Shown here one piece after another: positions 4,946-63,264 of a stretch of DNA of 64,000 nt. Within the stretch, counting starts at the first letter, position 1. Each line of letters opens with the position of its first letter. The DNA is from Podarcis cretensis (lineage: Eukaryota). The position numbers and the translations under genes are program-made. The stretch is taken from assembly GCA_951804945.1 (NCBI GenBank), contig OX638150.1:35092001-35156000 (forward strand), given 5' to 3'. The notes beneath the pieces were generated by a model. The model ran no database searches. It was not told where the DNA came from and saw nothing but the letters and a program-made list of their open reading frames with translations.

Positions 4946-57636
<52,691 letters not shown>

Positions 57637-58359
57637 TTGTGCTCCTGCAGTGTCTCCGTGATGTCTGACGTTTGGAAAGAGTGCCATAACACTACTGACT
57701 ACAGGCCCACCGTCACTGGAAGAGACATCCACTAACCGTGGCCTTGGATTCAGTTGCAGGGCTGAGTCTTGCCTGGCCACTCACCTGCTTATCATCCTCT
57801 TCACTGTGCCTCACCTGAAGCCCTCATTTTCTCTTTGAGATGCCAGCCTTGCACTAAGGCTGGAATGCTTCCCTTGGCCTGTTTCCCTTCATGCCTCTGG
57901 ATATGTTTTTGCAATTCTTCAATCGTTTGCACAATTTCTTTTAAAATAAAATATTTCTACTGGGATGGGTTTTAAATTATAAATATTACTGCCTTGGGTG
58001 CAGAGATTTTTTTAAAAAAATAAATACTGTTACCTCTGACTAAGATTATTTTTTGTACATTTTTTTTAAAAAAAATCATACTGGGTGTTTGTTCAATAGA
58101 TATATTTTAGAAGAGTTCTTTTTTTAAAAAAAAATCTTGAATGAAATAATATATGTCATTTTAGATTCCTGTGGCTGCTGTAACTTTTTTTTTCTCCTTC
58201 AAATGAGGAAATTGCAAGGGGTTTGGGTTTTTTTGGTCATGTTACTGTTAAGTAGTTTTGCAGACTCAGGTAGATTCTTATTTTTGTAGCTGATCAGAGC
58301 TGGAAAAATTAATCAAATTAACTTGATTTGTGTGTGGACACTACATTGAACTGTTGTGA

Positions 58360-58365
58360 AATAAA
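58360..58365 (+). terminator. Probable LLGL2 polyadenylation signal (alternative AATAAA at 57945 and 58019)
   Basis: AATAAA at the end of an AT-rich 3'UTR, followed by U-rich sequence. Confidence 0.55.
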
Positions 58366-59158
58366 CCCGTACTTTTAACATGCTTTTTAATTTGACCAAG
58401 AAACTCTGTTGCCTCATTTTGATGCCCTCTGAAATGTTTTAACAGCCTTGTAACTGCAGCACGGGAAGTGATCCTCTTCATTTAGATGCTTGTAGTGCTT
58501 TCCATGGTCACATGAAACTTGTTCTATAAGCCACGAGTTCCCCACATTCTGTGAAAGGCAGACAAATCTTACCTGGAAGGGGTTATTATAGACCACTCAG
58601 CCTTTCAGCGTAATTGCCTAATGCATTTCTAGGTTGCTTTCCAGGGGATTTTACCAATTCTCTCAATCTAGTCCAATTCACTAGACCAAAGGCAGAATCC
58701 CAACTGTATCCTAACCTTCCAAAGGTAACAGATCATATTAATTTAGGTTTGATTCTATGCACCAATCAAAAGCACAGTATAACACCCAGAGAATGAAGCG
58801 TGTGATAATGATAAAAATTATTCCTTACTAAACCTACAAACAAGCTGCTTTGCTACAGGGCAAGGTAAAAAAATGCCTTGTAATCAAATGAATCTTATTT
58901 TTAAAAAATTATTCCTCCATATATGAAGAAATATAAACTGATGAAGGGGCCTGTATAGTACTGCTAGGGAGACTAGAGCTAGGTTTAGATTCTGCAGGCA
59001 GGGGACTAAGAAAATCTTGGGAAGATGATTTATCAGTTCCCATTTTGTAAAAATTGGAATAGCAGCGCGAACCACCAAGAACTTGCTCTTACGTATGTGT
59101 AGAGAGGCGAAAATGACAAAAAGGCACCAGGAAGTAAATATACAAACATTAAAAAGAG

Positions 59159-59193
59159 TTTATTTGAAAAGTACAAAATTAACTTACTTTATT
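59159..59193 (-). terminator. Two poly(A) signals for the minus-strand gene
   Basis: TTTATT on + at 59159-59164 and 59188-59193; U/GU-rich sequence follows on the minus strand. Confidence 0.55.
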
Positions 59194-59330
59194 AAATACC
59201 TCAGTTAGGGACTATGCTAAAATATATAAATATATATACATATATATAAGGAGAAGGAAAATCCTCCCCAGTTTAAAAACCCTGTGTACCGGCTGCTCCT
59301 AGTACACTGCCAATATTGCAGCATGTGTCT

Positions 59331-60188
59331 CTAGAAGAAGCCTTGGGTATACCTTTTCTTTGGCGGAAGGTGGCCGTTTTGAGAAGAGTCCGCAGACCGT
59401 TTGGTTGCCACCATGAGCTCAGACAGAGGAGCGCTCCTCTTCAGGCTCAGCTTCCGGTTTTGTGTGCCTCTCATCCTGGCGGTTCTCCTGGCACCCTGTT
59501 GGCAGGAAGCTGCTTCTGTGGCCCTGGGAGGTATCCGACACTCTACCTGTGGGCAAAGCTGCCCATCCCTCCTGGAAGATCCTTTCCGTTTCTGCCCGAG
59601 AATGAAACTTCGATAGAAGGATTCCACCTCAGGAAGGTCTGCCAGATTAGTCATCTCTATGGTATCGAGCAGATGGCTGTACTCCAGGGGGACAGGACTT
59701 CTTTGGCACTCTTGCAGTGGGGGCGAGTCCTGCCTCTTCAACACCTCCACGTGCATCTTACGGTTTGGCGGCAGCAGCCGTGGCCTCTTCCTCTCTGCAG
59801 ACTTAAGCAGCAAATCTGAAGCGCAGATCTGCAGGAATTCCTCTTTGGGATTTGCTTCCGGCTCCAGCTCTTGGGCCACATGATGCAAGTCTCTTTGGCG
59901 GGGGCACTGTGCCGTCATCCGGCTACTTGCGTACAATTGCGCCTGAGGGGGAGGCACCACCATCAGGTAGAAAAAGGCATGTGACAAGGTTGTGTCCCTT
60001 GTCCAATTCTCCTGGCTTGGAGCACAAGCTGGTGACCCACACCCTGACACTTGAGACGACACGGTGGGGTGTGTCTGGGGTTTCCGTTTTTCATACCACG
60101 CTTGAAGAAACTTCTCCCGGCTGGATTTGGGCCCTCCTACATCACTTGGGCACACGGCTTCCTCCCCTGGAATGGCTCCCGTTTCCAT
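59331..60188 (-). CDS. Uncharacterised 285-aa protein, basic/Pro/Ser-rich with NLS-like motifs; probable terminal exon of an unrecognised gene
   Basis: Longest ORF in the window; no TE hallmarks that I can see; acceptor at 60197 with long pyrimidine tract; AATAAA (minus strand) at 59188-59193 and 59159-59164; no family recognised. Confidence 0.65.
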   Translation of the reverse strand: METGAIPGEEAVCPSDVGGPKSSREKFLQAWYEKRKPQTHPTVSSQVSGCGSPACAPSQENWTRDTTLSHAFFYLMVVPPPQAQLYASSRMTAQCPRQRDLHHVAQELEPEANPKEEFLQICASDLLLKSAERKRPRLLPPNRKMHVEVLKRQDSPPLQECQRSPVPLEYSHLLDTIEMTNLADLPEVESFYRSFILGQKRKGSSRRDGQLCPQVECRIPPRATEAASCQQGARRTARMRGTQNRKLSLKRSAPLSELMVATKRSADSSQNGHLPPKKRYTQGFF

Positions 60189-60314
60189 GCAAGGATCTGT
60201 GATTTCAAAGAGCGAGACGGGGGGGAAAATAAGTGAAGGAACTTTCTGACGTGCAATTTAATAAGGGGGTGATAAAATGGAGTCTCGAATTGACCTGCAA
60301 GGAATAGCTGTAGC

Positions 60315-60327
60315 GTTGCCAGGCAAC
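60315..60327. promoter_or_regulatory. RFX X-box palindrome GTTGCCAGGCAAC
   Basis: Perfect GTTGCC-N-GGCAAC inverted repeat matching the RFX consensus, 127 nt upstream of the orphan ORF ATG. Confidence 0.55.
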
Positions 60328-60987
60328 CACACGCATTCTAGATCTCACCAGTCTCAAACAAGCTTCTTGGCCTAAGCCATCACAGCAACAGCAGTTGGGA
60401 CAAGAGGGATCAGGCTTCCCGATGTCATAAGCACTCTGATGTCAGTAACTTGGACAGTTGCTCACAACTGTTCACAAACCCACTGTGTACTATTTATGTG
60501 ACCTGACCACTTGCCAAAGCTGTAGCTGGCAAGTCTTGACTACTGAGTGTTAGTGGTGGCTGGAGTCCTGGAGGTGTGGCCAGTGAGGTCACAGGGGCAT
60601 GGCCAGTTCTGGTTTTCTCCCCATCTTGCCTTTGCAAAGATTCTGTGGATACTTACGCATTGTAGTTGTACAAATACTTAGGACCTAACTAAATCGATAA
60701 TTGACTTACAGGAATGCAAAACCCCCATACTTATCACAAATCCTACACAAGTGTTGAAAGTTGCAAAACACACACACAAGACACCCACCATTTCTCCTTC
60801 CAATCCTCTTACCCATTCACAAAAATAAGTGGAAAATAGATATTACAAAGACACACACTGTCCACCATTGCTCTCAACAAATATTAATTTGAAAACAAGC
60901 TGCTCAAATTAGTAACCACACACATTCTTCCTAGATAGCTATGAAGAATGTGTTTTGAGGTGTGGCTTTCAAGAAAACCGTTCTGAG

Positions 60988-61510: not shown

Positions 61511-62979
61511 TTTAATTCCAATATCAGTTACGTGGTACGTGGGGACTTTTTAAAAACATAGCTACACTTTTGGATTAGCAGTGGCTGAGTGCTGCAGAGA
61601 CCTGATTAGCCAGAGAACTAATTAACTTTATTTTTTTACAATTTATACACCATGATTGGGCGGGGAGAGAGAAATCAAAGCAGTTTACAAAAAGAAAGAA
61701 TAAAATTATCCGTAAAAAGTTAACAATGTTTGAAGAGCTTCTCTGAGTGAAAATGAAAGTACAAAATGTGTCTGAGACAGGAAAGCTGGGGAGGGATTTT
61801 TTTTTTTTTTAACATTCTTCTCAGGAGGGAAGGCTCCGCCACAGTGACCAGCCTCCACCACCCAATGTGTGTTTACAGTAGCAATACTGTTTCTGAATGC
61901 ATAATTTTATCTGGTGCCAACAGCTTTCATAACAGAAGAGAGCATCGTAAAATAACGGGTATGCACCACTTCTGTTTACAGTAACTAGGTAAGCCCCCCC
62001 CCCCCCGCCAAAAAGAACTCAATTAAGAGGCCATTGCAAGTTTTCCAAGCTCCTTTTGGATAAGATGTCCTCCCACATTGCCATGGGAAGCTGCAGCGTT
62101 TAGTGCTAGAATAAGCATTAAATATCTCCGCTGCTTGTTGCATCCCCTTGTCTGTGTGCCAGGTTACGTTAGGCCCCTGGCTGAAGAGGATCTGATTTAA
62201 TACCTTTGCATTGTGCTTTTGTTAGATTTGGCCATGGCAGTCGTAATCCTATCCGTTTGGGAGTAATTCAATTGGCTCTGCTTCTCAGGACTAAGCTCTC
62301 AGGCACTTAAGCAGTTCCCGTGCGCTCCCCACCCACCACAATCCCCGTTTCCATTTCCTGCAATCTTGTCCTATGAAGTGGGCGCATTTACCTATGACAC
62401 TGTGCCAGCCCCCTTTCACACTATTTGCGCGGATGTTCTTGAGGCGGAAGAGAGCTCAACCCAGCCACTCGGAACAGCTGCGCTCCAGGCTTGTGTCTTC
62501 TAATTACATCAGTGAAGAAGTGTTGTAGGCAAATGACTCCTCCAGTAGCAGAGCATTGCAGTTTAATGTGCAACATGAGCTCCTAACCGGCAGGCAAAAC
62601 AACACTTCAGCTGAGATGGCCGGCCCCATGACCTTGGCTGTGTTGTGTGGGTGGGAGGGTGAGAGAGAGAGAGGAGAGACATGGCTCTCATAACAACAGG
62701 ATTATTCCCTTGAACCTTACAGAGCAGCTGACAATTAGGCAACAAAGAGCAAGTGAAATATTTAGAGGACTTTTTCCAACCTGTGTTGCTTAATTGGTTT
62801 GGTTTGCTTTCCCTGGACATGAATATTTTATCATCCCACCTCAGGTTTCCTTTGAGGAACAAGTGACTAGAACCTACTTTCTTTTTAAATAGTAGCATTG
62901 TTACCCTAAAGCTGTAGAAAGCTCGAGGATTTTTTGTGGGGGTGGGTGGGGGAGCAGGCAGGTTTCTCACACACAAAAA

Positions 62980-63209
62980 CAGTGGTACCTCGGGTTACAG
63001 ACACTTCAGGTTACATACGCTTCAGGTTACAGACTCCGCTAACCCAGAAATAGTACCTCGGGTTAAGAACTTTGCTTCAGGATGAGAAGAGAAATTGTGC
63101 GCGGCAGCAGGAGGCCCCATTAGCTAAAGTGGTACCTCAGGTTAAGAACAGTTTCAGGTTAAGAACGGACCTCCAGAACGAATTAAGTTCTTAACCCGAG
63201 GTACCACTG
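62980..63209. mobile_element. MITE family A (opposite orientation)
   Basis: Same TIRs and body. Confidence 0.9.
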
Positions 63210-63264
63210 TATGGGAGGAATAGTGCCTGAGCGTTTTGTCAGGTGTCTCACGTCCTACAGATGC

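Follow-up and report, generated by a model that had tools for sequence, protein, structure and literature searches.

The window analysed here is the whole stretch of 64,000 nucleotides of the Podarcis cretensis genome (GCA_951804945.1, contig OX638150.1, positions 35,092,001 to 35,156,000), and positions are those of the window in forward-strand numbering. Its longest ATG-initiated orf has 858 nucleotides, is encoded on the minus strand (60188-59331) and specifies a 285-residue protein with a pI of 9.4; the runner-up has 204 residues. The GC content of the orf is 0.56 versus 0.40 and 0.37 in its 1-kb flanks, and its observed/expected CpG ratio is 0.47 versus 0.25 and 0.29. The left neighbour is LLGL2, identified by a match of one exon frame to PDB entry 6n8p (E 1e-25), and the two genes are arranged tail-to-tail: contigs of the last LLGL2 exon end at 58383-58384 in three of four sequencing runs, about 0.76 kb from the 3′ end of the orf gene. 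A previous sequence-only reading had described the orf as the longest of the window, basic, richer in GC and CpG than its flanks, preceded by an acceptor, followed by two polyadenylation signals and facing LLGL2 across about 0.75 kb between 3′ ends, all of which agrees with the present results. The features of the locus are collected in Table 1.

Past the right end of the window lie myosin-head exons whose best match among solved structures is myosin XV. The myosin-XV-like gene, probably MYO15B, begins about 8 kb past the right end (L021:7910-10000, L023:4829-5146, L024:4503-4880) and opens with a long frame of low complexity, about 700 codons in length. In human, LLGL2 is presumably followed directly by MYO15B. 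Elsewhere in the window, positions 36183-36916 hold overlapping minus-strand frames of repeated units, apparently a minisatellite within LLGL2, and positions 62979-63211 and 54044-54270 are copies of a short high-copy repeat, the former covered by contigs to a depth of more than 50,000 in each of the four runs aligned.

Table 1. Features of the orf gene and its neighbourhood (window positions)
Feature	Position	Strand	Basis or remark
Coding sequence, single exon, 285 aa + TAG	59331..60188	minus	Sequence; Podarcis models; 1294-nt X2 contig piece with 0 gaps
Two AATAAA signals	59193-59188, 59164-59159	minus	138 and 167 nt past stop; an X1 contig stops at 59188 (weak hint)
LLGL2 last exon and 3′ UTR, AATAAA at 58360	57627..58384	plus	Neighbour of the orf gene
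Polypyrimidine tract and acceptor AG (60198-60197)	60197..60240	minus	8 nt before ATG; used by X1 joint
98-nt 5′ UTR intron, GT..AG, partly retained	60197..60294	minus	X1 joint 60196->60295, ends CT..AC
Likely non-coding upstream exon	60295..60608 (5′ end from X1 contig extent)	minus	X1 contig
Alternative upstream exon of P. muralis isoform X1 model (349 aa)	62392..62576	minus	tblastn, two frames, one stop
N-terminal amphipathic helix, aa 22-35, SxREKFLQAWxEK	60084..60125	minus	Conserved in reptiles only
Central block, aa 117-150, ICxSDLL...RKRPRLLPPxxKMxV	59739..59840	minus	Best conserved part
Second block, aa 165-195, PLEYxHLxD...DLxEVESFY, predicted helical	59604..59696	minus	Alignment, AlphaFold
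C-terminal motif LPPKKRY, aa 274-280, candidate TBL1/NCoR-binding motif	59349..59369	minus	Alignment

The transcript evidence consists of assembled contigs from four of 20 listed sequencing runs, all of related organisms; none is recorded as RNA, and their RNA nature is a guess. They behave like RNA at the last acceptor of LLGL2, where contigs of all four runs begin (57627) and from which one contig runs on for 2982 letters elsewhere. The lack of contig cover at positions 58543-58769 in the four runs is likewise RNA-like. The whole orf is covered by X1 and X2, in the latter case by a single piece. The joint that removes the 5′ UTR intron was found in one X1 contig (depth 33, shorter side 27 letters), and other X1 and X2 contigs read through the intron unspliced. 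The upstream exon that this joint attaches has an in-frame stop before the junction and no ATG after it, and adds no coding sequence. The sequence-only reading had paired the acceptor with a donor at 60656, which would add MHPC in frame and give a protein of 289 residues. That frame does exist in the sequence, but the 15 joints listed (of 37) include none that starts at 60656, low-depth contigs of two runs cross the site unspliced, and the acceptor is used from 60295 instead. The 289-residue form is unsupported; the models of three named Podarcis species each have 285 residues from METGA.

Longer database isoforms of several reptiles diverge upstream of this acceptor region. The 64 extra residues of the P. 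muralis isoform X1 model come from the exon at 62392-62576, which ends in a donor (TAG/GTAAAT) at 62391. Because of a frameshift and a stop, this exon is non-coding in the P. cretensis genome, and the start of the RefSeq isoform is probably not real coding sequence. Donor scores computed from base frequencies are rough and carry little weight (0.1 for 60656, 1.4 for 60294 and 4.3 for 62391). Since the upstream exons add no coding sequence, the conserved product is considered to be the 285-residue protein of one coding exon, with variable 5′ exons. The orf is almost certainly a real protein-coding gene. At least 16 X1 differences are listed within it, with seven synonymous and seven non-synonymous codons on 200 and 655 sites, respectively; a ratio of the dN/dS type calculated by hand from the differences listed is roughly 0.3-0.4, a figure which suggests that the orf evolves fast but under constraint.

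The first protein search found 19 proteins at E ≤0.001 among 262 candidates. The top match, Podarcis muralis LOC114590618, is 95% identical over its full length, and the others are from Lacerta, Rhineura, snakes, geckos, a cordylid, Pogona, turtles and Latimeria; reptile orthologues are 37-95% identical over most of their length. Models of 285 residues with the same METGA start exist in P. muralis (isoform X2), P. raffonei and P. lilfordi, and 269-275 of the 285 residues are identical to these three without insertions or deletions. When 1.84 billion cluster representatives were searched with a profile, 14 matched; they added Anolis, Phrynocephalus, Chelydra, Pleurodeles and Ambystoma, as well as a protein of 146 residues (P0058, E 1.3e-4) that has four relatives of 130-181 residues. 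One of these relatives is AB205_0189320 of the bullfrog Aquarana catesbeiana; therefore, P0058 is read as a compact frog form of the protein, and a viral origin that had been considered for it was dropped. Viral contigs and metagenome contigs contained no relative. The frog profile matches the reptile-coelacanth profile with a probability of 96.7 (E 3e-10), and the best match of the frog protein in the lizard genome is the orf locus itself (E 0.04). Frog-type forms (P0058, P0064-P0067), 130-155 residues long in four of five rows, carry a CPxxCCH cluster behind the central block, and their C terminus reads IH[PRH]KKxLLxRF.

In a tree of 35 rows, the well-supported clades follow known groups (lacertids with Rhineura 97/99, iguanians with snakes 97/95, geckos, turtles), and the branching agrees with species groups among the reptiles and inside each of the amphibian groups; frogs attach weakly (56/93) to skink-like rows, and the deep branch order is without support. 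The spread of orthologues from coelacanth to lizard presumably represents about 400 million years. No named match from birds, crocodilians, mammals, ray-finned fish or cartilaginous fish appeared in the protein and profile searches, which is not proof of loss because several matches are unnamed and the frog form was barely detected. Genes of the same family are already present in RefSeq and GenBank as uncharacterized models: LOC114590618 (P. muralis), LOC128407495 (P. raffonei), LOC117039121 (Lacerta agilis), LOC110085194 (Pogona), LOC103277830 (Anolis), LOC112542397 (Python), LOC112058983 (Chrysemys), LOC106705162 (Latimeria) and AB205_0189320 (Aquarana). Accordingly, given the P. muralis match and relatives as distant as amphibians and the coelacanth, the gene is both annotated and old. 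The sequence-only reading had called it unrecognised, which it is not, and had proposed a lineage-restricted or fast-evolving nuclear protein gene; it is real, fast-evolving, probably nuclear and without a known family, but it is not young. Searches of the main text of open-access papers yielded no description of the gene, no mention of six of the LOC identifiers above, of the string RPRLLPP, of LLGL2-MYO15B synteny or of a relevant gene loss, and no paper with both PPKKR and TBL1; LLGL2 and MYO15B occur together in two papers, both on cancer.

When all 24 candidate regions of the P. cretensis genome were scored, three matches were obtained: the orf gene itself and, on a different chromosome, two incomplete and disrupted copies that are 74% identical in DNA over 199 nucleotides. 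The broken copies (G000:C1:112361111-112362934; L025:6013-7934) correspond to residues 133-225 approximately, contain stops and frameshifts, and are held within a 531-bp tandem duplication whose units are 93% identical. Their flanks are taken to be LINE fragments. By their sequence the copies are an old decayed duplicate of the orf gene. Neither numerous copies nor a reverse transcriptase or transposase domain turned up in the genome and Pfam searches, in keeping with the earlier remark that the orf has no transposable element hallmarks.

Pfam gave nothing under E 0.1 for the orf protein, 20 members of the alignment and seven distant members, and PDB sequence searches gave nothing beyond a chance match to GINS Psf2 (E 0.46). 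No DNA-binding domain was found in the orf protein, a point against the co-repressor reading proposed below, which gives no account of how the protein would reach chromatin. Scores against ESM Atlas clusters were all below 0.9, a level often reached by shuffled proteins. In the AlphaFold model of the lizard form (mean pLDDT 52, pTM 0.18), 154 of 285 residues have a pLDDT below 50, and the block of highest pLDDT (85) is the helix of residues 23-35; the frog form has a mean pLDDT of 54 and a pTM of 0.25. The protein is predicted to be mostly disordered, with the proviso that low pLDDT from an alignment of 20 sequences is not proof of disorder.

Conservation was counted over 29 aligned rows, which exclude near-identical cluster members and two partial models. 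Mean column agreement is 0.73-0.81 in the central block versus 0.63 in the tail. The tail motif persists although its surroundings are poorly conserved, also in frog proteins of half the length; LPPKKR is exact in 23 of 29 rows and KK is present in all 29. The EVESFY block is decayed in agamid-like rows, namely Pogona, Phrynocephalus and one unnamed row (P0018, P0052, P0056), and missing altogether from P0054, while all four of these rows retain the central block and the tail. A monopartite nuclear localization pattern, K[KR]x[KR], occurs in the central block of 27 of 29 rows and at the tail of none. Therefore, the tail probably does something other than import. A nuclear location is likely, and it is fairly probable that the protein is a disordered nuclear adaptor. 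Resemblances to CITED2 LPEL, the YAP omega-loop and PP1 RVxF, judged by eye, were rejected because key residues are missing.

The tail resembles a published class of co-repressor ligands. In PMC9890238, PLKKR and HKKF motifs are defined, PLKKR domains pull down Smr (Smrter), Ebi and HDAC3, one of the baits reads LPLKKRHY, and PLKKR is linked to the PIKKR site of MeCP2 on TBLR1; PMC13385800 reports that a second MeCP2-like motif, in SETD5, binds TBLR1. With the matrix taken from the former paper, 27 of 29 rows have their best-scoring site at the tail. In the orf protein this site scores 12.7 bits, which two of 200 shuffles reach; MeCP2 scores 18.8 and four fly baits score 22-26. The shortfall includes a penalty of -4.6 bits for Pro at the fourth position of the motif, where the five sites shown for the published matrix all have Leu and MeCP2 has Ile. 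In the data of PMC9890238, an xLPPKKR site has a FIMO score equal to that of the MeCP2 site, with a q value of 0.56. The tail thus has the LP-x-KKR core sought in a PLKKR motif, is the best matrix site and is conserved above its flanks, but 27 of 29 rows have Pro at the fourth position and the other two have Arg or His; because this residue is not Leu or Ile, the orf protein is not filed as a PLKKR-type ligand. Frog sites score at chance (reached by 16-181 of 200 shuffles), two frog rows lack the Pro, and by eye the frog tails IHPKKRLL and IHHKKNLL resemble the HKKF-type baits of PMC9890238. TBL1XR1 exons lie at G000:C5:90.53-90.57 Mb (L011, L016-L019) of the P. cretensis genome, and another gene of the TBL1 family has its first exon at G000:C4:70095939 (L010); therefore, the partner proposed below exists in the same genome.

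We tentatively propose that the orf protein is a disordered nuclear adaptor that may recruit TBL1/NCoR-HDAC3 by its tail. The central KRPR would mediate nuclear import, and the central block together with the EVESFY helix would hold a second partner, probably one bound to DNA or chromatin. The candidate motif LPPKKRY would dock on TBL1/TBLR1 and bring in the NCoR/SMRT-HDAC3 co-repressor, such that repression would run through the tail. Binding of the tail to TBL1/TBLR1 is itself a possibility to which we assign distinctly less than an even chance.

A reading that we rate somewhat nearer to even likelihood keeps the nuclear disordered protein, makes the tail an import signal or a site for another partner, and places the function in the central block, through a partner left unnamed. 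The better conservation of that block and the Pro at the Leu position of PLKKR both favour it, as does a bipartite pattern, KR-x12-KKR, that ends at the tail in five of 29 rows including the orf protein; yet the upstream basic pair is missing from the other 24, which retain L, P, P and Y/F, whereas an import signal generally requires less. The separate import pattern of the central block also tells against this reading, which moreover names no mechanism. Alternatively, the protein could regulate the cell cycle or the germ line by docking on a cyclin or replication factor, with RPRLLP as an RxL-like or EVESFY as a PIP-like motif. Proteins of this sort typically evolve fast and have short motifs, and the two motifs do resemble the RxL and PIP-box patterns, but RxL-type patterns are too short to carry weight, the FY pair is absent from coelacanth, salamander, frog and agamid rows, and the sole echo in the PDB is the GINS Psf2 match, which leaves this alternative improbable.

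The sequence LPPKKR also occurs in the C3G peptide PPPALPPKKR, a ligand of the Crk/CrkL SH3 domain according to PMC8705818, which would make the orf protein a cytoplasmic signalling adaptor. The consensus is PxLPxK, however, and its first Pro is found at the tail in none of the 29 rows, so that this assignment is very unlikely. Finally, the splice support amounts to a single contig from one run, its shorter side 27 letters long, and the runs are only guessed to be RNA, as one might expect of a chance orf, a transposon remnant or a non-coding transcript; full-length orthologues over about 400 million years and a single intact copy in the genome make such an explanation scarcely credible.

New here are the view of these genes as a family, its extension to coelacanth and amphibians, and a motif hypothesis that can be tested; the gene itself was not hidden, as annotation pipelines already call it. 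Scattered uncharacterized records are united in a single old family whose motifs are defined. Should the tail bind TBL1/TBLR1, the known motif would be widened to tolerate Pro, and reptiles and amphibians would have a co-repressor recruiter perhaps missing in mammals; if it does not, this is still an unstudied conserved nuclear protein. The broadest statement would be that an undescribed family of vertebrate transcriptional co-repressor adaptors, 400 million years old, sits between LLGL2 and MYO15B, combines a novel binding motif at its centre with a TBL1-binding motif of the PPKKR variety, which in frogs is drifting towards HKKF, and has disappeared from mammals and birds; this is speculative and, taken whole, unlikely.

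Among known systems, the orf belongs to the orthologue group of LOC114590618 by full-length homology and an intact frame, and the listed LOC orthologues likewise have neither a gene name nor a Pfam family. By features, the nearest Atlas clusters (0.79-0.81) are CCDC71/CCDC71L and other disordered vertebrate nuclear proteins, and human CCDC71 carries DLPPKKR like the tail of the orf protein; unlike CCDC71, the orf protein has no match to PF15374, and the likeness is one of features. From the TBL1/TBLR1 ligands of the PLKKR/MeCP2-NID type (MeCP2 PIKKRK, SETD5 PLKKWK, Drosophila Snail and Ash1) it differs by Pro in place of Leu or Ile, by having no DNA- or chromatin-binding domain and by being a candidate ligand only; with them it shares a short conserved LPxKKR in a disordered basic setting.
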